A stretch of 63,157 nt of DNA, the filler included, from Hausera hauseri (taxonomy: Eukaryota): the NCBI GenBank assembly GCA_046269625.1. It is 10 parts of 10 records of this genome, joined end to end, with 100 filler letters (N's around TTAATTAATTAA, not from the genome) between each part and the next. Parts side by side here need not be neighbours in the genome. Positions count along the whole stretch, not along the records: positions 17,491 to 23,574 come from JBJURY010142980.1; 9 more parts are not named here. One strand, given 5' to 3'. Under the pieces are notes generated by a model. That model was not told the origin of the DNA, did not search any database, and saw only the letters and a program-made list of their open reading frames with translations. The position numbers were made by a program, and so were the translations under genes. Of this stretch, positions 17,491 to 59,425 are shown piece by piece. The number at the start of each line of letters is the position of its first letter. The first letter of the stretch is position 1.

Positions 17491-20400
17491 GTTATAGTTT
17501 ATACAGATCATCAGGCATTAGAAAAACTTGATTGTAAAAACAAACGTATCTATAATCGAATACAACGTTGGAAGATGGAACTATTAAATTACAATCCGAA
17601 ATTTAAATACGTACCAGGAAAACTTCACAGTGATGCAGATGCTATATCGAGAACCATATATCCTGAGATCAATTCGGCAGCATTTACTCCGATAGAAGAA
17701 CATGAATTTACTACAATGATGACAGAATTTGCAAATCTTAATACAGATAAATTAGCAACCGTTCAAGATGACGATCCTTTGCTCTATGTTGTGAAAAAAT
17801 ATGTACACACTTCCGAAATGCCTAATATTGACAAACGTTTAACGGAATGGCTAATAGACCATAAAAGTAAATTGATTATTGATAGAAATATACTGAAATA
17901 TATCTACAATGATAGAGCTTTAATTGTTATACCTAGTTCATTGATAAAATCAGTCTTACTTCAAGAACATGATTCTCACCTAGCTGGTCACCCATCGTTG
18001 GGCAAAACCATAAAACGTATTAAACTTAAATACTTTTGGCCAAATCAAACAGAGGATATTGTTAATTGGGTCAAATCTTGTAAGATTTGTGCAACCCGAA
18101 GGGATAGGGGAAGATGTATAAGACCAACGCTGGGAACACTTCCAGAGCCCAAAGCACCTATGGAAATATGTGCTATGGATATTTCAGGACCTTATCCGAC
18201 ATCTGAATCAGGCTATAAATATATACTGAGTTTTATCGATTATTACACAAGTTACATTATACTAATCCCATTAAAAACTATGACTACAGAAGCAATAGCA
18301 ATGGAATTGTTTAACAAATTAATATGCATATTCGGATCACCTAGATTAATATTAACTGATAGAGCTCCATATTTTACGAGTCAACTGTTTAATGAAGTTT
18401 CAAAAGTACTTCAAACTAGACATGTATTAACCACAGCTTACCATCCACAGTGTAATGGTAAAGTAGAACGATCTAATAGAACTGTGCAGGGAATTTTATC
18501 TGTACAAGTCTCTGCAGATCAGAAAAATTGGTCAGATAAATTGCCAACTGTAGCTTTCGCCATGGATACCACACCGACGAGAAGTACAAATAAAACACCA
18601 TATGAATTGATGTTTGGAAGACTTCCTTTATTACCATTAGACATTGAACTACTACCAACAGCTTTACCATTTACGGGTAACCAACAAGAAGAAAACTACA
18701 TGGTTTTACTGAAACAACTAAGTGATTATGGAGAACAATCGAGAGCAGTTAGAGAAGAGTACAAAAAATCCTACACTAAACATTATAATAAAAAGGCTCA
18801 AGCAAATCCTTATAAAAAAGGAGATTTCATCATGATACACTATCCAGTGACAGCCAAAGGAAAATCCCTAAAGCTGACACGCACTGGCAAAGGTCCTTAT
18901 AAAGTTGTGGAAGTTAGACCACAAACTCTATTTATTGAAAAATCTCCAGGAAAAATAGAGAATGTTTCTATACAGAATGTAACTAGAGCTCCAAAATCGT
19001 ATACAGGAAAATTCGGTCTTACATCACCAAATTTGCTTTCCACTAATTTGTTAACAATGATTTGCATTCTCATTATTTTGTTATCTTGTACTCATGCGAG
19101 TTATGGTCAATTTAATATTCCTTATAAATCTATGGTACAACTAGTTGAGCAGAATCAAAACCATACAGCTAGCGACGAGATATTTAACAAGGAAATACAA
19201 GTGCTCGGACCAGATTTTGAAAGGGGCTGTATAAAGTTCAAAAAGAGACGTACCAGCAATATTGTGCGAATAGTGATTTTCTATAAAGAAAAATTGGCGT
19301 TTACAGATTTGGATAACGAGAATAACTTAACATGTCTTTTAGTAATTAGAGATCAACTATTTTCCTTGCTTGCACTAATTTTCAAGAGTAATAAAGAGAA
19401 TAAGTGGGACCTGCATCTAACCGTCAAATCTAGCATAAAATGTCTAATACCTTTCAAAATTAATGAATGTATCTACGACATCGCTTTTATGACTGAGCAA
19501 AATAGATGCAATATACCCTATAAAGAGTATAGAAAGATGGCGAAGTATAATGATTTAGAGATTACCGAAAATTTATTTGTACTGATTTACCCTAAACCAG
19601 ATCGAATAGTATTCGCTCGGAATTATCAATCAAATATTAAGAATACACAAGTTAGTATCGCTTGTATAAATCAGCATCATCAACAACGAATTATCCTCGA
19701 AAGGAATCAAAAATGTGCCCATTGTGTAAAGTTAAGCTCGGACACTGATTACTTAATAGTGATAAAAACCTGTACTCATTATTCAGAAATGCATGTTAGA
19801 ACCTTACCCAGAGTAAATAAAATAATCAAGTTTAATTATAATAAAAAAGACTCTAAGACTGATTCACAAACTTTGAAACCAGAAATCGACAATATCGAAT
19901 CAAGCATTGCCGTGTGTGCTTTTTTAATCATCATGTTAAGTATAGCTTTGTTGTTTGTGTTGGCTATAGGCACTTTAATTATTCCAAAAATAGTTCGACA
20001 TAGTCATACTGACACTATCACGTGTCACTGCCCACTAATCTCAAGATGGCGGTCACAGACTAGTCATCCGCACGAGCATTTATCGCACACACTACATGCG
20101 CCCCCACAAATAGCTACATTATTAGCATGTTCATTGGTTGTATGTTGTATACACACCAACAAAGGTGAGTATTTAAACGAATTTTATTTATTTTCAGCTC
20201 TCTACAAATTCAATTTCAGTATGAAACGTCAAAATCCGAAAATGACAAAAAATGATTCACAAATCCAGTCTAGCTTATTGTATTCCAAGATGAATCCTCA
20301 ATATCATGCAGATCAAATGGACTCACAAACCTTAATTCAGAATTATGGAAATAAAAAAGGAAGCCTCAATAAGACTATGTCAAAAACTTTTTACAACAAC

Positions 20401-22206
20401 ATCAGGAGGCAAATGATAAAAATGGACCATTTCGTAGCTTTAAGCGTGGTTCGAATCCCGAATCAACTAAAGCACGAAATTACTGTGAACAGAAATCTCG
20501 GAATCTATTTGATCCAGGAAGCTCAGCAGTTGGAATTGAGAAGATATATGTCTAAGACTGACATGATAGACGGACTAGTGATCCATGTCGCCAGAGGTAT
20601 GATCAGCTTAAAAACAAGGAACGAACAACATTATTCGGATTCAACAGTCTGCAGAATCTGTGAAGAAGAAACTTTATTTATTAATACTCCCATGAGTATT
20701 GATTTAATCCAAGCCAGACCCATGTATGTACCACTCGTTATAATGTTGGAATGGCTTCTTCCCGAAAAACATTTATATTTACCCAGACCTATGATCTTGG
20801 CTCATAACCCTCCAGAAATGGTGAAACAATCCAGATTGAATTTTATTAATACTAATCAAAGTAATACAATCAGAATATTAGCAGTTTCTGTCGGGTACAT
20901 GCAAGATAATTGCCCCTTACCTATTCATGTCATTATCGCCAATAAAAAAGGGACTATATTATATGAAGCTATAATAGCTAACAGGAAGAAGGTACATAAT
21001 GTTAATTCAGTAAGACACGGCATATTACCTGAGTACATCGCTCATCAGGGACAAGACATATTTGACGTTACTAGAGAAATGATTAATTGGTTATTCGGTG
21101 TAGTGGTAGTTGGATTAGAGACCCATAAAATGTTAGAGGCTTTTGACATACCATTGAATTATTTTGCAGGAATAATAGATTTATTAAAACATGAAGAGAT
21201 TACTGGACATACTTTCCAACAGCTGACGCTAATAAATATCAGTAATCTTCTAAAATTACCCGGATCAAGAAACAGCCAAGGATATGCCCAAGATAACCAC
21301 GGTAAATTAAGCCTTACCATGGATGTTTTTCATTTAGTGTCCAATCCCTTCCAGGTAGCATGGGTGCCACCGGAACCATTTAACAACGTAATAGATCCCG
21401 GAGAACTGTTTTACAACAGGGAAAAATATCTGGCAGATTTTGCCTGGATCCATCATGTAACAGGAGGACCAATACAGGACACAGATGCCATTGTAGACGA
21501 AATTATAGACGAGTTAAAGACACCATCAGTATCGGATATTTCAGATATGGTCGCAGAAGAAGAAGGGAAACTACAAAGAGAAGATCAAATTCTCGCAACT
21601 AAAGATACGTCTGAAGGAAATTGGGGTAACTGGAATTACAACCCGGGTAGCAAGAATTCAATAGCTATTCAAACGGAAGAAAATGACTTTAATATGTTCA
21701 CCAAAAGAATAATACAAGGACTAACGAAATTTGATATCTTTACATTTCCATATGGAATCATTATTTACACGAGAAACTTTAGCTTTCCCGTAGTAATTGA
21801 TTCTATCGAGACACCGACATATATTGATCAAACAATTCCTCAAATCACGTTACAGTCATGGGATAATAGTAATAACGTACTTATTGGATTTATATACGAA
21901 CGATCAACAGACATAAAAATGCTTTTCATATACGAGGAATACGAAAGATTGTACAAGTTACCGATACGCTTGGATGCAGACTTTCATATCAAACTCCCAA
22001 TACAGTTAAAAAATAATGTGGCGATGACGAAGCTTAAGAACGAACATAAAGGAGGAAAATTGATTTATATCCTATTAATCAAACACCAAAGACCCATTAT
22101 GATACCAATAGAACGAGTACCACAAGGAAAGAAGCCAGATCCGGAGTTAACGCTGACATACAGAATTGAAAAGGAAATCAGACAAGAAGTTGACCTAGAC
22201 TATTAA
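17491..22206 (+). CDS. 5'-partial uninterrupted Gypsy polyprotein: RNase H end, integrase, internal signal, Cys-rich ectodomain, TM helix, unknown domain, degenerate DEDDh exonuclease-like fold, unknown C-terminal domain
   Basis: Open from contig start (VIVYTDHQAL...RIQRW...DADAISR); HHCC (HDSHLAGH...CKIC); DDE (MDISGPY, LTDRAPYF, NGKVERSNRT); GPYKVVEV; then ~1050 more codons without a stop. Confidence 0.92.
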   Translation, partial: VIVYTDHQALEKLDCKNKRIYNRIQRWKMELLNYNPKFKYVPGKLHSDADAISRTIYPEINSAAFTPIEEHEFTTMMTEFANLNTDKLATVQDDDPLLYVVKKYVHTSEMPNIDKRLTEWLIDHKSKLIIDRNILKYIYNDRALIVIPSSLIKSVLLQEHDSHLAGHPSLGKTIKRIKLKYFWPNQTEDIVNWVKSCKICATRRDRGRCIRPTLGTLPEPKAPMEICAMDISGPYPTSESGYKYILSFIDYYTSYIILIPLKTMTTEAIAMELFNKLICIFGSPRLILTDRAPYFTSQLFNEVSKVLQTRHVLTTAYHPQCNGKVERSNRTVQGILSVQVSADQKNWSDKLPTVAFAMDTTPTRSTNKTPYELMFGRLPLLPLDIELLPTALPFTGNQQEENYMVLLKQLSDYGEQSRAVREEYKKSYTKHYNKKAQANPYKKGDFIMIHYPVTAKGKSLKLTRTGKGPYKVVEVRPQTLFIEKSPGKIENVSIQNVTRAPKSYTGKFGLTSPNLLSTNLLTMICILIILLSCTHASYGQFNIPYKSMVQLVEQNQNHTASDEIFNKEIQVLGPDFERGCIKFKKRRTSNIVRIVIFYKEKLAFTDLDNENNLTCLLVIRDQLFSLLALIFKSNKENKWDLHLTVKSSIKCLIPFKINECIYDIAFMTEQNRCNIPYKEYRKMAKYNDLEITENLFVLIYPKPDRIVFARNYQSNIKNTQVSIACINQHHQQRIILERNQKCAHCVKLSSDTDYLIVIKTCTHYSEMHVRTLPRVNKIIKFNYNKKDSKTDSQTLKPEIDNIESSIAVCAFLIIMLSIALLFVLAIGTLIIPKIVRHSHTDTITCHCPLISRWRSQTSHPHEHLSHTLHAPPQIATLLACSLVVCCIHTNKGEYLNEFYLFSALYKFNFSMKRQNPKMTKNDSQIQSSLLYSKMNPQYHADQMDSQTLIQNYGNKKGSLNKTMSKTFYNNIRRQMIKMDHFVALSVVRIPNQLKHEITVNRNLGIYLIQEAQQLELRRYMSKTDMIDGLVIHVARGMISLKTRNEQHYSDSTVCRICEEETLFINTPMSIDLIQARPMYVPLVIMLEWLLPEKHLYLPRPMILAHNPPEMVKQSRLNFINTNQSNTIRILAVSVGYMQDNCPLPIHVIIANKKGTILYEAIIANRKKVHNVNSVRHGILPEYIAHQGQDIFDVTREMINWLFGVVVVGLETHKMLEAFDIPLNYFAGIIDLLKHEEITGHTFQQLTLINISNLLKLPGSRNSQGYAQDNHGKLSLTMDVFHLVSNPFQVAWVPPEPFNNVIDPGELFYNREKYLADFAWIHHVTGGPIQDTDAIVDEIIDELKTPSVSDISDMVAEEEGKLQREDQILATKDTSEGNWGNWNYNPGSKNSIAIQTEENDFNMFTKRIIQGLTKFDIFTFPYGIIIYTRNFSFPVVIDSIETPTYIDQTIPQITLQSWDNSNNVLIGFIYERSTDIKMLFIYEEYERLYKLPIRLDADFHIKLPIQLKNNVAMTKLKNEHKGGKLIYILLIKHQRPIMIPIERVPQGKKPDPELTLTYRIEKEIRQEVDLDY

Positions 22207-22397
22207 TATTTGTGATTAATTGTGGGTGATAACTTTACATCTTGTCTTGATCCTTTGTTTTATGTATATTCTTGCATGTTTCTTATATTTTTATTTTTAT
22301 TGTTATCTTACATTTTTGTTTCTGCACATTTTAGTTATGTAAATATTAGTAATTCTTTCAACTTCGCTTTGTTTTTGTCATGGTGAATGACCCCTTA

Positions 22398-22835
22398 AGG
22401 GTCGGGGAATGTTGTTAATAGGCTACAGTCTAGACTAGTTGTACTAGTCTAGCCTTAAAATTTGGAAGTGGAGCGCGCGGCTAATTTGAATGATTAATTT
22501 AGTTTATAATTTGCGCCGGCGCCAAGTTTGAATTAGATAAATTTAATATAAATACAGAAAGAAAAACCATTAGGACACACAAATTTTTTACTTCAGTCAA
22601 ATTTTTCTCTCAAAGGAATTTTGGATTACTCCCTTTAAAAATTCTAGATAGAGTTTTTGCATATTTGATTGTTGTATTACGAGTAAGTCTTAGTATACAA
22701 AGTGTTATTTCTGTTAATGATTGACTTGTACATTTGTAAATTTTGTGTTGATTATACGTTATAAAATAATTCCGAGTTCTTCTTAAAAGTAATACGCTAG
22801 ACTCAATCTGCAGAGAGATTGAAGTCAAATAAACA
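22398..22835 (+). repeat. PPT and candidate 3' LTR (22410..22835)
   Basis: AGGGTCGGGGAA then TGTTG; ends AAACA; TATAAATA ~22547; hairpin CTAGACTAGT-TGT-ACTAGTCTAG; no 5' LTR available to confirm. Confidence 0.65.
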
Positions 22836-23574
22836 TTTTTGTTTTTTTCCTAAACTCAGCATTCAAATACATCCAAATATTTCATGAACACCTTGCTGTC
22901 TAAATTGTAACAGAATTGCAAGGTGCGTATTGAAAGTATCAAATCTCACTGTACAAAAGAATATTTCTTGCTCGATATAAGGAAATCTGTAAGCTTGGCA
23001 TTATTTTTGAGGATAAGAAGTTCTTTTCTATGTCTTCCCTGCCAGTTTGTCCTCAATTTATTTTCCAGTTTGGAAACAGTAGGACCAGTACTTTGCTATC
23101 ATCAACCAACATAGACATTCACAGACATGTGGTCCATTGCAACTACACAATCACACTGAAGGGCGCTGCAGACATCCGCCTCCATCCTCGCATGGATCCA
23201 AATCGCTGATCTGCCTGGAGCATAAGCCTCTTTGTTGATTCTAGTGGTTTACATAAAGAAGTAGAATGAAAGCCGTGCCTGACATTCAGAAAATGAAGTA
23301 AAGCTCGGAGGAAGACCAGAGCGTTGCACACAGATGCATGCTGGAGACATGTTCGCAGTCCTCTTTTATGTGAGCTTGCCCTGTGTGAGAGTGTTGCCTC
23401 AGGGAAAAAGCCTATGATAGTAAGAAGGATCTGGGTGGCTCCATAGATTGGTTTAATGTTGGTCTGCTACTGGTACGTTTGAATCTAAGGAATGCTTTGA
23501 CTCAAACAGTTCTGCTTTATTAGTACAACACAACAACACAACAAGTCAGGAATATTCTTGAACGCAAACAAATT

Positions 23575-30515: not shown

Positions 30516-30899
30516 CACGTTCCGTACCCATAACTGCCCATAACGTGAAAGCGTAGTCATGCATTGACCCCTAGCAACGGCCTTGGACGTGCTAGATAGT
30601 GATGTTTTTAGAGCATCATGTGTATTGTTATTTGTTGTTATTTTTTATTAAAACTTATTAAAATAGTGAACTAATATAATAAAATATTTAATTTTACATT
30701 TGAAAGCAAAAAAATTGCGCTTTTGTAATTTAAATTAAATTAAAACACGATGTGTCCGAGATTTGTCTCTTCCGGGCACTCTTCGAAAAATGGCTTGATG
30801 TACGCTTCATAATGACAGTGCATTTCGAACTAAATTGTGTTGTGATTCTTAATCTAATTGCCTTAGTGATTAGGGATATAAATTAAATTATGATTATAT

Positions 30900-44233: not shown

Positions 44234-45650
44234 CGGGAAAAATGCAAGGAATTCTGAAATCATACGCTATTCGTTACAATGATAAATTCCAACCTGTCAT
44301 TATCACTGAGAAAACCGGTGTTGCTTCTTCTAACAAAACCATTTTAAAATTATCACCGCACCGACAACACACATTCTATAGATCAATGTCTAACGAGATC
44401 AAAGAAGGGTCCAAAGATCCGTATTCCTATACTATTGAGCGGGATAACCCGAATGCGCCAACGTATATTCATGAAGATAAACTTCCAACATCAACGTTTA
44501 AAGTTTCGTGGACATCGGCGTCAGATGAATTTGGTCATATTAACAGCTACTTTTTGGAAATCGGTGAAGTTAACTCTAATTCCCAGCCGACTATATATCA
44601 TATTGGTACACTTGAACGTCAATTCCCCATTAAAAATCTAATGGCTCGCACTTCTTACATCGTTTATTTGGCATCGGTAAATTCAATTGGTAAGAGCAAA
44701 CCTATTCCAACTACAGTCAGAACAGACAGAGAAGAACAGACAGCACCGAAAATTGTCAATAACTACATCAACGGCGAGTCAGTTCGATTGACTTGGGAAA
44801 ATCTGTTTGTCGGCAATGAAACTGCAGAGTACACGTACCGCACTTGTTGCCAACGAGGATTGCACAATTAGGAATGCATTGATACTTTACCGACTTTGGA
44901 AAATAGTCAATGTCACTGGCGATTTGATGCTAAAGTTTATTGGGTGGAATCACGTAAAAAACAACTGGAACGCTTCGTCGGTTTACGTATGGATTAGACT
45001 ATCTGTCCCTAGTGAATTATGTAATAATCCTCCAAATTGTCCGCGATTAAAATTGTCTTCTTCGAAACATATGCTTAATTTTACATACTATCATCCACCA
45101 ATTCCCGTTTTGAATATTGTTGAACATATTCTTAGTTGTCGAGCTGACTGTGGAGCGGGATTTCAAACAGAGTCTGAGGCTGTCGAAAATTCTGATCTCA
45201 AAAAATGGTTAATTACACATGCAAAACTAAAGGAAAATCAATTGAAAAACCACTACACAAATATTTTTTCTTATGATCATAGTAAAGTTATTTTGCAAAA
45301 TTCGTTCAGCGGGAAATCCGATAATATAAATACTAGTTTCATTGACGGTTATAAGCGCACAAATCCATACATGGTCACTCAGGGACCGTTGAAAGATACG
45401 ATTCCGGATTTCTGGCAAATGGTTCGGGAGCAGAATTGTGACATCATCTCAATGATATCGAATTTCTATGAACGAGGTCGTTCTAAGCGCGAAGAATATT
45501 TGTCTACTAATGAAACGCTTTATGGAAACATAAGCGTTCGACTGGTTTACGACACTAAGAGAGCCTTTTTTACGGAACGTCGATTTAAAATTCGAAATAT
45601 GCGAAATTTTTTTAAACTCCAACACGTACGATGGCAGTTCTTTTGTGTAA
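44234..45650 (+). pseudogene. Fragmented receptor-type protein tyrosine phosphatase (FN3 pieces plus N-half of PTP domain)
   Basis: FN3: KVSW...YFLE...IKNLMARTSYIVYLASVNSIG; PTP: NHYTNIFSYDHSKVIL, INTSFIDGY, TQGPLKDTIPDFWQMV; no TM and no HCSAG. Confidence 0.8.
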
Positions 45651-46289
45651 TCGACACTGATGACGTAATTCAAATAATTATGATTAGCATGTCGAATTTT
45701 ATTACGTATTCATCGAATTCCCTTAATACCAATGCTTTATTTATTTTGAGTTATTTGAAATGTCCCGATTGTAGTAGTTTGACGGAAGAAAAGTTATGTT
45801 CGAAACTCCCACAGATGTTTACTAAACAGGGTGATACGTTTTCGTATTTTACCAAACGCAGCAGTTGGTTGGGAGAATTCCATGTTAATATTATTACTGA
45901 AAACCCGTCCAGTTTCTCCATGCTTTATTTTCCCAACGGATTTGAACGGAACTTTTACGAATTAGTTTCTATTATATTAAAGGGTGCAAATCATATTATT
46001 TTATATTTACAAATGATAATGAACAGTATCAAATCAATGTTTGTTGTTACTGAAGAAGAACCATATATGAATGTTTGTTAGTTGCAATAATGTTAATCAA
46101 TCTTATCATTTCATCATTTACACGAACTGTAGAGAGAGGTGGTATTACAGTGACTCACATCTGATTAGTTAATTGAAACAATTAACAATGTAGGGCTCAA
46201 TATAGCTTTCGACATTCGTTTCCTTGTCTTTTCGGCACAAATAACATCAGGCATTAATAAGATAAATCGAAACTTTTGAAATTAATAAA

Positions 46290-52623: not shown

Positions 52624-55463
52624 CTATCAACGTTTGTTCTCATTATATTAATTGGGATTTTTCGGTTAGTTGCCAAAAACTGTTATTGCAAACGTCCCAA
52701 AACCACAGAATTGGAATTAAGGGAATTGGAAACCGCTGTTGACCCATGTGATAAAATAATCTGGCAACTACTGAGTGGGTTATTCTATTATCAAACAAAT
52801 AATTGGTTTTATTTCATGTCCGTGCTTTGCTGTAAGATTAACCCTTACTGTTTATTTTTTAGATTGATGAGTAAGACTTCGAGAACAGAAACCGGACAAT
52901 GTAGAATCGACGGATCGCAATCAACCAAAGAACACCGAGTTCCTCCGAAAACGTGCTACCGTATATATCCCGAATTCAAAATTGATCTTCAAATAAATAA
53001 GCGACGAACTACATGAGAAGACATACGTAGAATACAACCAGATAAGTGAAATCCCTAATAACTTAAAAAGGCATAATGGAAGAAACTCGTTTCGTGTATC
53101 TGTATCCAATGTGGGAGAACAAAGATAATAGAGCGTACGCCTTAAAACAAATGATTAAATACGAACCTATTCATCAGCAGAGCATTTATATACACCTAGC
53201 GGATGGTGAGATATATTATCGGATAAAAGATCAGGCATGGAATGCCAATAGTTGAAGACAGTACAGATTTAGTACCTTTTTCTATGTAGTGGAGATCTGT
53301 CATTACGACTTAGAATTTCAAGTAGCCACACTCACTGTAAAAATGATGTTTGAAGTAACTTATGAAGATTATCCTTATGTCCAGTTACCGTCCTGGAAAT
53401 TTTACCAACAACCGTCAGAAATATCAAAACTGTCGTCCAGATTAGTACCCGATGCCCGAAACACAAGGATAATAGCAGTTAGTTGTGGAGAAGGAAGCGA
53501 TGCGCAAGAAATTTCGATTGAAGTTTCAGTCCTTGAAACGAGCGAAACAAAAATATACTGCAAAACTATTAACCCTAGAAAACGCGTGCGCGAAACGTAT
53601 TGTGATGCAACAGGAATCCGTAAAGAGACCCTTGCGAGAGAAGATATTAAGCATGTCCAAGCCGAATGAGAACATTGTTTATACAGATGCATCGTCGCTG
53701 GATATCGCGTCCACAAAATTGTTGAATTATTGAAATAATTCCGCTCAAGTATCGTAGGAATACGAGGCATAGGGACACACGTCGTGGTCGCGAAGCAAAC
53801 AAAATCGACGTTGCGAGAAAGAAATTATCCTATGCCAAAAATTACGGATGAATATTTCAAGTTAATGATCGATGCCATGAATAGTAAACATGTCAAGATT
53901 AGTAAACTATTAACTTCAAGCCAAAGAACACAATACTTGCATGATATTTACGTGACTTTAAAATTGGACCATGAATGAATCCCCACAAACCCAGAACAGA
54001 ACATAAGAAGCTCCACTAGTCCAGAAAAAACGAGTAAAAAACAGCGAAAACACTACCGAACTTACTCCATGCATATAACTCTTGAACCCGTCAGTCACGA
54101 TAATATTCGAATAACCGTTTCAAGTATTTGCCAGACTGCAGAAAATAAACCTACTACTATCTATGGATTGAGTTCTACCTCGGACAAAAATCAAGCCAAG
54201 CTGACAGCAAACCCACCATTCAGCCCTGAAAAGAAATGCAAAGAGGAAACGATCTCCACTCATTTCAAATTACGAGTAACCCCAAAGAAATATTCTAAAA
54301 AAGCACAAGGAAAAAATGCCCCGAAATGACAGAAAATGAAAATTCCGGCATTTACCCCAAAAAGAAAACTGGCTCTTTACGAATGTTTTTAAAAGGAAGG
54401 CCAAGAGCACAGAAGACAAAAAGGAAATATCAAAATATATGCAGGAATCACTCAAAATGTAAGTTCCATAGAAAATTGAAGAATCCGAAACTCCCAAAAA
54501 GGAAATCTGACCTATACCCCTACAAAAAGTAGATGTACGGAAAACAGAACCGATCCGAAGAAAAGTCAAAACTGAAGCTCACAAAAGAAATTCAGGAGAC
54601 GAATTTATGCAAGTGTTTACAGAAGTGAATATTTTTCGAAGAAATCAATCTAACGAGAATGTCCATTACGCCATCCAGGATGATTATTCCATAATGCTGG
54701 TTATGGCCGAGTATTGTAGCCACTAGCAGATCAAGGAAGCTGTATTTCACGTCAAAAAGTTAGAATCACGCAAAGTTATGGAAGACTCGTATATATGGGA
54801 AAACCTGAAAGCAGGAAAATACCTCGCCGCGATATTTTAATCGAAAAGGACTGGAAAGTTATCATTATTAGTAGATTAGCAAATCAAGGTACTATTAAAG
54901 AAACAATATGAAGCCTAACAGAAAGGAAAACATGTCCCAGGTTGGGATAAGAATACCATAGTGGACTGGACTTTTGTACCAGTAAACTACGATCGCCGTA
55001 GAAGATCTAGAGATCCAAAATAAAAGTCAATTCATGGCTGCCTTTACCAAGACCAGGACGGATTGGTATTTGAACCTATACAGGTCATTCTAGAGTCGAT
55101 TTGGACCGAGAAGATACAGATGAAGAAGAGGACCACTGTCCCGTCTGCAGAGAAATCATCACCCAAGGATTCGTTAAGTTAAACAACAAGGAATGTAGAC
55201 ATAAATATTGTCGAGCTTGTCTGGAAACCTGGATTTTAGATAATGGAAAAACTACATGTCCAGTATGTCATGCAAAGGCCGTCGAACTTAGGTACTATTC
55301 GGATGGTACTCATAATCGAACCATGTGCATTAAACCCTCAACTAGCTATGTACTAGAACCTACGGACGACATGGAGAATGAAGCGGGCCTTAAGCGTCGC
55401 CTTAACCGCCTCAGGCGACCAAACAATGGTGTCACATCTCTTGACGCAATAGTCACATCCTAG
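52624..55463 (+). pseudogene. Decayed accessory region of a Gypsy element homologous to 19900..21400: TM helix, unknown domain, DEDDh-like fold, Lys-rich linker, C3HC4 RING
   Basis: LSTFVLIILIGIF TM; EIPNNLK; IYIHLADG; TRIIAVSCG...INPRKRV...TGI; RING CPVC-x15-CRH-x2-CRAC-x13-CPVC at 55137..55268. Confidence 0.75.
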
Positions 55464-55485
55464 GATGCCGCTCAGTGAGGACAAA

Positions 55486-56248
55486 TGTTGCAGAATTGTA
55501 TAAATTATTATTGAACGAAATGTAACATGAGAAATTAAAAAATTGTATATAATTAGAGGATAGGATTTAGAATAATTTGCCATATTCTTGAAAATTTTAG
55601 AAGCATTTTCCGAATTTCTACGAATTTAAATAAAAAATTCGGGATTAAATTGTACCTATAATTCATGGGATATATATATAGAAATTGAGTAGTAATCGAA
55701 AACAATTATTGCTAAACCGGATACTCACTTAGGTGCTCAGCTATATAAACAGATCGCGTTAATCAGTGGTTGGTTGTTAGTGTGCGACTGAAATAGAAAT
55801 TAGCGACACTAGAGTTGCTTAGCAGTTGATATTAGTCATTAGTAGTTAGCTGTTCAGTTGATAGTTGAAACAGAATTTAGTGGAGAAATTATCCGATTGC
55901 GAAGATAACCGATAATGAATTGACATTGATCAGTGATTTAAAGTACGGGTTGTATTTATTGTATTAATAAATTATTTAAATTTCTAAAGTTTCCCACTGC
56001 CTCTTAAAGGTAGTTAAACGTCATTAAGGATTAAAATTACTCAAAATACATAGGTAAGTCGAGAATTTAATAATTGATTGCACATGACCGCAAGTGAGTA
56101 CCCGCATTAGTATTCATAAAATTTATATAAGGCACAATCTGTCTAGACGAAAACGTTTAGACATTACCTGACGTATAGTAAATATAATTTCAAATGTCAC
56201 TATTGTTATATAGTGGGAGTTGTATAAGGGCCACCCAAATATATAACA
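55486..56248 (+). repeat. Candidate 3' LTR
   Basis: GAGGACAAA then TGTTG; TATATAA ~55742; AATAAA ~55966; ends TATAACA; last ~200 bp homologous to the LTR end at 16873..17060. Confidence 0.7.
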
Positions 56249-57061
56249 AACGTATTATGCTGATCTGCCTAAAGCATATCTATACACATTCCATTAAAAG
56301 TGCCAAGTAAACTGATACGCAAATGAAAATCAAATACAATCCCCACGTTTAATCGATCTACCTAAGCTATCATTAGCAGATAAACACGAAAACTCGGATG
56401 TTATCTATGAAATAATTACATCCCGATTAACCTATAAATCATAACAGACGGTACGCATCTGCCTTTTACATACCGCACCAATATAAAGGCAATAGCTTGC
56501 GTAATCGTTTCACCGTTCTCGCATTTTTGGTTGTACAAACACAATACGAGAAATTACTCAATGACAATTTCAATAGCCTAAGTTTCCTTTATACCCACCA
56601 TGCTACTCATCACTTTCTATCGATACGATTAAATTTGTATTTCATAGCTCAAAGCAATCAAATAAGAAAATCAATATATTACAACATACATCGATTGCGA
56701 CAACACAAAAAATTTAGTTTGAGTTATTACCAAAACTTCTAATGGAAACTTTCCCATTGTATTATCAAAATTGAATACGGCGATGTTCCACAGTGGTATG
56801 CAAATAGGAAAATTTGGAGCCTAATCTAACTTCGAATATAATCTAAGAATGTACTATGTCTATGACACAATCTAATGAAAAACATAAAAATACATCTTTC
56901 GATAATTTAGACTCAGATAATTAGAATTTTATATCCTTCGGATGTCATAGCTATGTCAGAAATTACTCCTGATTGCATACAGGTATATATTCACGAATAT
57001 AACAAAACAAAAGTATAGTACCAGTTTATTCAAAACTCATTAATCCACGAGCTGTCCTTCG

Positions 57062-57330
57062 AATGATGATAATGAAGTTCATGATGATGGTGATTTTGAT
57101 AATGATGATGATGATGATGATGATTATAATGATGATTATGATGATTATGTTGGTAATGATGATAATCATGATGATAATGATGATGATAATGGTGATGGCG
57201 GTTATGAATTTGATATTAATAATGTGATTATGATGGAAAATTGAATAATTAGTTGATGACAATGGTGATGATGACGGAGATGTTGAAGGTGATGAGGATG
57301 ATTATGATGATGATGATGATGATGATGATT

Positions 57331-57390
<60 letters not shown>
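57062..57390. repeat. (GAT)n microsatellite, degenerate then pure
   Basis: Direct inspection. Confidence 0.95.
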
Positions 57391-57490: not shown

Positions 57491-57885
57491 GTTTTCGAAC
57501 AGGTTCCATTGATGCCCACAAACTCGGATCGAGAATGTGGATAAAAGAAAAAGGACCAGTTGTGGAAAACTATATCTGGTTTATTGAATCATATCGTGAT
57601 CCCCTCAGTGTTCGTGGAGAATTCGAAGCGTTCATTGCCGTCGTCAATAAAGAAATGTTGGAGAAATTCAACAAACTCGTCGCATCGGCTCCAACCATTC
57701 TTAAAGTACTGCCTTGGCCGAAAGAATACGAAAAGAACAAATTTCTTCAACTCAAATTCACATCACTGGATACTATCAATTTCACCAACAGCGGCATGCC
57801 GGTTGTAATTAACATTCTGAATTTCAACGATATTCAACAAAATGAAGGGTTTAATAACGTTTCGTTAGGTAACGTTCTGAAATCA
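57491..57885 (+). pseudogene. DPP3: Dipeptidyl peptidase 3 fragment, intronless and decayed
   Basis: [27 protein letters not shown]...RGEFE...LPWP..YEK..FL...FTSLD...[11 protein letters not shown]; ends before the HEXXGH site. Confidence 0.88.
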
Positions 57886-57889
57886 TGAT

Positions 57890-59425
57890 TTCATGTTAGA
57901 CGAAATTCCGTGCTCGCTATTTTTACAATGTATAGAAATTTTAATTTTCTCATTCACGATGCTCCTAAAAAAATTACAAATTTCTTGAACAAGAACAAGA
58001 TGCATCATACAAACGAAATGCTTTTATGGTGCTACTTAATGCAAGTCATGAAATGGCATTGGAATATTTGTCAACGAGTCTCGATCAAGTACACATGTTT
58101 GGTGATATTTTACAGTTGATTATTGTTGAACCGATTTACAAAGTCTCCCATTCAAATCCAGAAGAACGGAGAAGGTTCATTCGTTATGTGTACAATCTTC
58201 TACAATCCAGCATTCCGTCGGTTAGATATGAAGCTGCTGGTACACTAATTACGTTAACAAATGCTGTCACTGCAATTAAATCGGTCGCTACTTGTCATAT
58301 TGATTTAATTTTAAAGGAAAGTGACAATAACGTTAAGTTAATTGTACTAGACTGTTTAATAGGACTTCGAGAAAACCACGAAGAAGATCTTCGATGTCTT
58401 GTTATGGATATTTTACGAATTTTCGGCGCTTCTGATTTGGAAGCTCGGAAGAAAACCTTGCAATTAGGATTGAATCTAATGACAAATCGAACTGCGGAAG
58501 ATTTTATAAACATTCTTTTCATAGAAATCGTTAAAATGTGCAGCAGTGATAATAAGTATAACAGCATTGATAAGAAATCTTATTGATATTATCTCGTAAA
58601 TACGATTTATTTGGCTTGTATTCATTGTTCGGATATGATCCCATCAGTGGTACCGACATTGTGTGAACTGCTGATATATGAGAATGAACAACAAGAAAAC
58701 AGTGGTTCCGATGAAGTCTGAAAATTTCTTCGTGAAGCTACTCTAAAATATCCGCAATATGAAACGTTGATGTTGAAAAAATTAATGGAATTCTGCCCGA
58801 ACATGCGTTGTTGAAGTGTCTTACTGCACATCATATGTATTTTAGGGGGATTTTATACATCTGTAGAACAAATTGAAAATTTCGTTAATCTCATTTATCA
58901 AGTGTTGGGACCCGTTCCAATTGTCAAAGAAGTCAGACGAATTAGTGGGGAAAACGTTGAAGCATCGGCATTACTGGCTGCCGAGGGCGGTTTGTCATCA
59001 AGCAGTCAAGAACGAAAAGTAACTACCGGCGAATGCAACTTTGTTGTTCTAAACGACATTGACATTGTCATTCTCGAATACATTATTCCAGCAACGTGCT
59101 GCAGAAGTCTGTATCGAAAAATGTGGAACGAATTTGAATGGGAGAACAAAGTAACAGTGAACACGAAAATCAGGGATCTCAATGTATGCTTGAGGCATAT
59201 CACAAGCATTACGAGTATGCGTTGTTTAACATCTCCAGAATCCCTGAAGGGTGAATGTGATTATCTTTGTGTTACATTGTACGAAAAAGCATTTTCGGTG
59301 AAAATGTACTGGCAAATGTTTGTTTGGTGAAACCACCCGGCAAAGAGCCGGTGACAGGATACGTTCGAATTCGAGCAAAGAGCCAAGGAATAGCCGTAAC
59401 GATGGGTGAGAAAAACTGCTCTTGA
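57890..59425 (+). pseudogene. COPB1: Coatomer subunit beta, intronless pseudogene with large internal deletion
   Basis: [35 protein letters not shown], then jump to MWNEFEWENKVTVNT and [11 protein letters not shown]; frameshifts and stops. Confidence 0.9.

Follow-up and report, generated by a model that had tools for sequence, protein, structure and literature searches.

A Ty3/Gypsy 3′ end with an integrase-fused membrane protein and an accessory dead-nuclease gene that is likely expressed from its own spliced mRNA

How many proteins does a single reading frame encode when it stays open far beyond the integrase of a retrotransposon? This question is raised by the 6,084-nt contig JBJURY010142980.1 (positions 17491-23574) of the Hausera hauseri assembly GCA_046269625.1. 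The contig is one of ten that make up the 63,157-nt stretch of DNA analyzed here (the window), in which the contigs are joined by N50-TTAATTAATTAA-N50 linkers and neighbors are unrelated. It carries the 3′ part of a Ty3/Gypsy element with an open frame of 1,571 codons (17491-22206). We propose that this frame likely represents two expression units rather than one giant protein: the end of Pol with a signal/ectodomain/transmembrane (TM) protein fused to the integrase, followed by an accessory gene for a dead nuclease that is likely translated from a spliced mRNA of its own. We place the probability of this reading at roughly 0.6.

The frame is unbroken from the first base of the contig, whereas long segments of the contig contain many stops in the remaining five frames. 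Since it is already open at the first base, its 5′ end is cut, and gag, protease and reverse transcriptase (RT) are not on the contig. A preliminary description of this DNA, made from the sequence alone, had reported an intact giant Gypsy open reading frame (ORF). The 1,571 open codons and the Ty3/Gypsy identity stand, but the frame is truncated and a single product is doubtful. The same description called it the only long ORF in the window; the next longest is indeed 429 aa, but the comparison runs across unrelated joined contigs. For the same reason, the recent activity that it suggested cannot be read from the window.

All features of the element given below lie on the plus strand. The Pol part opens with the tail of an RNase H domain directly after the joining linker (17491-17592; PF17917, aa 1-34, E=0.0036). 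The integrase (17929-18987) follows, with an H2C2 zinc finger (PF17921, E=1e-17), a core domain (PF00665, E=2e-10), a GPY motif (18892-18900, aa 468-470) and a C-terminal domain, a region that scored 39.7 bits against a profile of Pol relatives. About 1,100 codons lie downstream of the GPY motif. The 89 Pol relatives found share 24-35% identity, and none contains the part downstream of Pol (best E=1.7). A polypurine tract (PPT, 22397-22409) and a 3′ long terminal repeat (LTR, 22410-22861) close the element, as had been anticipated. The LTR runs from TGTTG to CAGCA and contains TATAAA at 22547 and 22760 and AATAAA at 22828. As the contig holds a single LTR, its end is deduced, partly from a drop in depth in run X1 after this point, and AAACA at 22835 is an alternative. 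RNase H before integrase, the H2C2 finger and core, the GPY/F motif and the PPT followed by a TG...CA LTR place the element, on sequence grounds, in Ty3/Gypsy (Metaviridae); its lineage is poorly sampled.

Past the integrase, the frame continues into a membrane protein. An internal signal peptide, LLTMICILIILLSCTHASYG (19048-19107, aa 520-539; hydropathy 2.37), begins about 20 residues beyond the integrase C-terminal domain and in frame with it; we take it to be cleaved after T-H-A, assuming the −3/−1 rule. An ectodomain of about 270 aa (19099-19905), beta-rich in a low-confidence model, leads to a TM helix (19906-19986, aa 806-832; hydropathy 3.16) and a Cys/His-rich cytoplasmic tail (19987-20220), which overlaps likely regulatory DNA with CACGTG at 20019 and AAGATGGCGG at 20043. 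We presume these two motifs to be an E-box and a YY1 site. The positions given earlier for the signal (19048), the LSSDTDY strand (19732) and the membrane helix (19906) proved exact.

Run X1 contains the family as many diverged copies, which we compared with the contig over 18960-20460; the figures refer to the 40 best-supported of 296 differences, scored singly. No difference introduces a stop, in line with the expectation that the ORF continues past the integrase in other copies, and the indels are confined to one compensating pair. In the signal and ectodomain, 17 of 32 differences are synonymous against an expectation of 26.8% (p=0.0014). In addition, the acceptor filter described below, which lets 4 of 42 in-frame ATGs through, rejects the ATG within the signal peptide (M523). 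The integrase-membrane protein fusion thus looks maintained, and the synonymous excess, the lack of stops and the acceptor-less signal ATG together indicate that the membrane protein is under selection and most likely made as part of Pol. Ten proteins of a Gypsy Pol family (P0057, P0059, P0062, P0065, P0066, P0068, P0070, P0076, P0077 and P0079) carry a hydrophobic helix that closes the protein after the integrase, a possible membrane anchor.

The ectodomain had not been recognized as a known fusogen, and our searches agree: Pfam gave no envelope-family hit at E≤1, no PDB sequence matched at E≤10, and neither the clusters of the protein atlas nor a full HMMER search of 1.84 billion proteins yielded a relative. 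A viral fold search gave no match at E≤0.001, with single-sequence models whose predicted local distance difference test scores (pLDDT 29 and 35, the ectodomain 35) are too poor to bear on the fold. The Cys-rich, glycosylated character ascribed to the ectodomain is present but modest, with 9 Cys and only 2 sequons in ~270 aa. The protein is most likely adhesion or receptor-like rather than a classical fusogen. Could it nevertheless be a true new fusogen or entry protein, making the element infectious and able to cross species? Several features would suit such a role: the protein sits where an env would and takes a polyprotein route, it carries a basic KKRR site (aa 584), it shows purifying selection, and the LTR-like end abuts DNA of another genome at a position that, like just one other among the 432 of the LTR, fits a terminal repeat. 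We consider this quite unlikely, as the ectodomain is well below the sizes given in the available parts of the sources for F (~600 aa for the whole protein, PMC5408684) and Gc (~440 aa, PMC9094657), is also shorter than gB ectodomains, contains no R-x-x-R and, as noted above, matches no envelope family or PDB sequence. Moreover, small non-membrane ORFs precede the accessory gene in many relatives, and the junction with the other genome may be a chimera.

The last ectodomain module has an FN3-like strand pattern in common with the repeats of a signal-ectodomain-TM protein in a related locus, L006. The segment 19597-19815 (aa 703-775) scored 11.6 bits against a profile of two L006 repeats with borders set by eye, a score reached by 1 of 1000 shuffles. 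FN3 domains are sandwiches of seven strands, one of them of the L-x-P-x-T-x-Y type. The FN3-like strand of the preliminary description, LSSDTDY, may fit this pattern, but PF00041 did not match, no FN3 chain matched in the PDB, and the module had no profile match to the FN3 domain found elsewhere in the window; with the model at pLDDT 35, an FN3 identity is suggestive only. Direct BLASTP homology between the membrane proteins of this element and L006 was not significant (best E=0.06) and was rejected, as was an integrase tail at the opening of the L006 frame, which 59 of 500 shuffles matched equally well.

The final ~660 aa had been regarded as polyprotein cargo of unspecified nature; they can be identified. 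The accessory gene, 661 aa from an ATG at 20221 (20221-22206), starts with a conserved N-domain of ~135 aa (~20395-20799) that is common to all homologs. Profile searches gave this domain no credible assignment, and we regard it as novel; it has a possible cupin-like look. An ISG20/REX4-type DEDDh exonuclease domain (~20866-21345) comes next, then an acidic spacer and a C-terminal part of ~190 aa for which there is no homolog; the full HMMER search returned none for the last ~280 aa. That search yielded six homologs of 22-33% identity, each called as a stand-alone protein with a Met start and all aligning only after ~aa 916. The family profile matches ISG20L2 (E=3e-19), ISG20 (1e-11) and SDN1 (4e-9), as well as DnaQ domains, and the protein atlas gave no more than a lead for the nuclease (0.89). 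Searches by protein words failed to turn up a relative for the accessory protein or, among shorter proteins, for aa 440-1571; PHROGs and NCBIfam gave no useful match and Rfam no match.

The domain belongs by homology to the DEDDh ISG20/REX4 group and lacks its catalytic residues: D-x-E has become A-x-S, the D of the second motif is E, and H..D is lost. Because of these replacements, we read it as a pseudo-nuclease. P0093, P0095 and P0096 retain D-x-E, D and H..D, and P0092 and P0094 are catalytically dead as well. A nuclease tree groups the element's domain with P0092/P0094 (87/84), with long branches that leave the grouping unsure. The accessory gene is a member of an unnamed retroelement accessory family with predicted active and dead members.

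How this family is laid out can be seen in 15 related loci, which a metagenome scan recovered from two assemblies, near-duplicates included. They were found through catalytic-motif patterns, so that their active sites are intact by construction; scans of viral contigs, and one of metagenome contigs, returned no locus. The nuclease gene is a separate ORF in 15/15 loci, with an in-frame stop no more than 113 codons before a shared IPN motif, and 12 of them have a 3′ splice acceptor at a distance of 0-4 nt ahead of the ATG. Neighboring accessory ORFs have an acceptor before the ATG in 8 of 9 cases tested, and encode TRAF (RING, zf-TRAF, MATH), RING and coiled-coil proteins. Loci L001-L004 contain whole arrays (RING, TRAF, two coiled-coil proteins and a DEDDh nuclease with intact sites) that close at an LTR, with TAATTTTAG immediately 5′ of the ATG in most ORFs, an arrangement that we describe from its layout as a complex-retrovirus-like or operon-like region. 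The nuclease gene is last before a shared CCCCGAGATA-TGT boundary in L001, L004 and L006, and in L001 the boundary is followed by an LTR, a TGG-type primer site, presumably for tRNA-Lys, and gag. A protein with a signal, a Cys-rich and Thr-rich ectodomain and a TM helix is present in L011 (2-973) and L012 (3-1679), where it continues the upstream frame. In L012, this protein differs from that of our element; a retroviral-type protease shares its frame, no RT separates the two, and the nuclease gene follows.

The element studied here has the same signals. An acceptor, CAATTTCAG (20211-20219), ends one base before the ATG, the two together spanning 20211-20223. Across the loci there are 25 copies of the consensus YAATTKYAG, 18 of which precede an ATG; the plus strand of the 6,084-nt contig has a single copy, at 20211. 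A 33-nt GT-AG micro-intron that preserves the frame lies just upstream (20165-20197), with a second donor at 20140. The simplest reading is that the accessory gene is expressed via a separate spliced mRNA. Flatworm operons are resolved by trans-splicing to such acceptors (PMC12582326, in its available part), and cis- and trans-splicing would fit the acceptor equally. A rise of X1 depth over 19929-20132 was rejected as proof of a promoter, as a similar peak lies inside the ectodomain.

The alternative is a single polyprotein, in which the pseudo-nuclease would form the cytoplasmic tail of the membrane protein, tethered at the membranes where particles assemble, and the acceptor would give a second, free form. 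Topology permits this, as the tail is cytosolic after the helix. The 75-codon linker from the helix to the ATG at 20221 is open, which shuffles put at P=0.016 by chance; the micro-intron preserves the frame; the X1 differences include no linker indels; and in P0092 and P0094, which are dead too, the frame is open ahead of the homologous part. A second, broken element in the window, on the plus strand of contig 52624-57390 (52624-56700, end approximate; 36-61% identity to P0092), shares the order TM helix, C-x-C, CC, micro-intron (31 nt, GT-AG, 52832-52862) and in-frame ATG (52867), followed downstream by a dead DEDDh-like domain, a RING finger, a PPT and an LTR start at 56220. Luck, however, is needed only for the last 20-40 linker codons, since a tail is expected there anyway: the last 41-20 codons are open by chance at P=0.06-0.18, and the finding was chosen for its length. 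Of the whole frame, the 75-codon linker is the one stretch for which chance openness is plausible. In the second element, the downstream homology shifts to another frame from 52937. Together with the dedicated acceptor and ATG and the separate ORF in every related locus, this leaves the single polyprotein as a possible but doubtful account, and it speaks against the accessory part as a polyprotein tail.

Several points weigh against the two-unit reading itself. The second element is open and in frame from the TM helix to the ATG past its micro-intron, which favors a kept fusion. The YAATTKYAG consensus was fixed after both the relatives and the finding had been seen, and a looser acceptor filter passes 4/42 in-frame ATGs. 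The 15 loci represent an active clade rather than the clade of the element itself. Finally, the stop and synonymous evidence comes from 40 of the 296 X1 differences, and the TM helix and tail account for only 6 of these, 3 of them synonymous (p=0.23).

A further possibility is that the long frame is an assembly artefact, a mosaic of different copies. The family is high-copy and diverged, none of the listed X1 contigs spans the entire stretch, and the 3′ end of the contig joins two genomes. All 30 bins are nevertheless covered by overlapping X1 contigs. Among them, a 278-nt contig equals 20165-20442 with 0 differences, crossing the acceptor and ATG, and an 834-nt contig equals 20944-21777 with 2 differences; the relatives, too, have a matching gene order. 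A mosaic origin is very improbable.

Under the two-unit reading, a plausible course of expression can be outlined. Pol would be threaded into the endoplasmic reticulum at the internal signal; signal peptidase would free a type I glycoprotein and the element protease would free the integrase, so that particles would form on glycoprotein-bearing membranes. Splicing to the acceptor that ends at 20219 would produce the accessory mRNA, whether by spliced-leader trans-splicing or in cis, with a promoter that lies upstream or is internal. The dead nuclease may bind RNA 3′ ends and in this way provide a shield or a decoy that counters small-RNA silencing or the exonucleases of the host. The missing stop between tail and accessory ATG would probably be incidental in this copy, or allow a minor membrane-tethered form.

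The closest architectures described are found in several groups of elements; the comparisons below refer to the available parts of the cited papers. In the Burro/GYPSM1 elements of planarians, env is in frame and lies between gag and pol, and the cargo includes MATH/TRAF (PMC6431247). The element resembles Burro in being a Ty3/Gypsy whose huge in-frame polyprotein takes in an env-like region, and MATH/TRAF and RING-type cargo is present in the related loci L002 and L004. Unlike in Burro, whose env is homologous to F-type fusion proteins, the membrane protein follows the integrase and has no fusogen match, and the Burro cargo described there does not include an exonuclease (PMC6431247). Of the Burro ORF1 domains, BIR, BCL2, MATH and ankyrin, none was found by Pfam in our ORF, whose 5′ part is off the contig. 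The rotifer Vesta and Juno elements encode a DnaQ-like 3′-5′ exonuclease or a small TM protein as ORF3 after pol (PMC5408684). Their ORF3 nuclease is of the DEDDy/RNase D type with intact residues, whereas the family here is DEDDh ISG20/REX4 with an N-domain and dead members, and its gene comes after a Pol-fused membrane protein (PMC5408684). Among cellular enzymes, ISG20, the ISG20L2/REX4 group and plant SDN1 belong to the same DEDDh family by profile search, and differ from the copy studied here, which lacks the catalytic residues.

A glycoprotein at the envelope position and in one frame with Pol is known from Atlas virus and nematode belpaoviruses (PMC9094657). Atlas virus is known to make a Gag-Pol-Env polyprotein that undergoes cellular cleavage, but it is a Bel/Pao element with a phlebovirus Gn/Gc class II envelope at the polyprotein end (PMC9094657). 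Metazoan errantiviruses, like this element, combine a Ty3/Gypsy pol with a downstream signal-ectodomain-TM protein; their env is F-type or gB-type, and the flatworm ones are reported to have the order gag-env-pol with gB (PMC13524379). Our element has no F or gB match, and its membrane protein is in frame with the integrase rather than in a separate third ORF. MDG1 elements carry small TM proteins in place of env (PMC11952523). Each ingredient has precedent, but the searched literature yielded neither this combination nor an ISG20-type accessory family. It described no such architecture and no Gypsy element with a gene of the DEDDh ISG20 type, although Repbase, subscription papers and supplements such as the PMC13524379 element table could contain one. 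The element probably belongs to an undescribed cargo-rich Ty3/Gypsy group with a Pol-fused surface protein and a separate dead-nuclease gene.

A 2026 survey classes metazoan Ty3/Gypsy envelopes, in its available part, as F-type or gB-type. The element would add a surface protein of another kind, which follows the integrase in frame, a route described for Bel/Pao. Its accessory family is laid out with host-derived signaling genes in the manner of a complex retrovirus accessory region, and these genes can be tested as candidate means by which retrotransposons may counter small-RNA silencing.

The LTR ends at DNA of different origin. The flank (22862-23574; CpG observed/expected 0.40) is near-identical in runs X2-X4, where it has a depth of 21-25. 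Over 714 nt these runs show 2, 5 and 11 differences, and the element appears in them only as short stray matches. In X1, depth is ~28 for pieces near-identical to this copy and 2-3 over the flank. Because the depths are opposite in X1 and X2-X4, the element family and the flank come from different genomes. The flank match begins at 22861 in all three of X2, X3 and X4. Of the 432 LTR positions, only 2 have a CA end and at least 4/5 bases complementary to the LTR start, and 22861 is among them. The junction at 22861/22862 may reflect either a chimera or an insertion across species; of the two, a chimeric molecule from a mixed sample is the commoner cause. The CA end fits an integrase product, yet the LTR end was itself placed partly from the junction. 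If true, the junction would directly record a transfer from one species to another. From the micro-introns and the Burro-like cargo, we infer that the element may have a flatworm-like owner. The full scenario, an undescribed complex retrovirus-like Gypsy lineage with a non-fusogen surface protein made from Pol, acceptor-fronted anti-defense accessory genes for TRAF, RING and active or dead ISG20-like nuclease proteins, and parasite-to-host transfer with integration exactly at the LTR end into a second species, appears unlikely as a whole.

The contigs of the window fall into a CpG-poor group, with pieces of long interspersed nuclear elements (LINE) and DNA transposons, and a CpG-rich group, as would be seen in a sample of host plus parasite. 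The contig at 28897-34919 switches between CpG-poor and CpG-rich near 30800. The minus strand of the contig at 12867-17390 carries a broken gag, which contains a protease motif, three CCHC knuckles and repeats rich in Arg, Asn and Asp. It is weakly similar to the L001 gag (E=4e-7) and possibly represents the 5′ portion of a related element. Two further stretches, 57493-59330 and 44234-46081, consist of intronless, broken host-type gene pieces on contigs that also carry Gypsy elements. They encode Adaptin_N (beta-COP-like), FN3 and tyrosine phosphatase domains, together with a piece that we take to be DPP3-like, and are possibly retro-copied or captured mRNAs.

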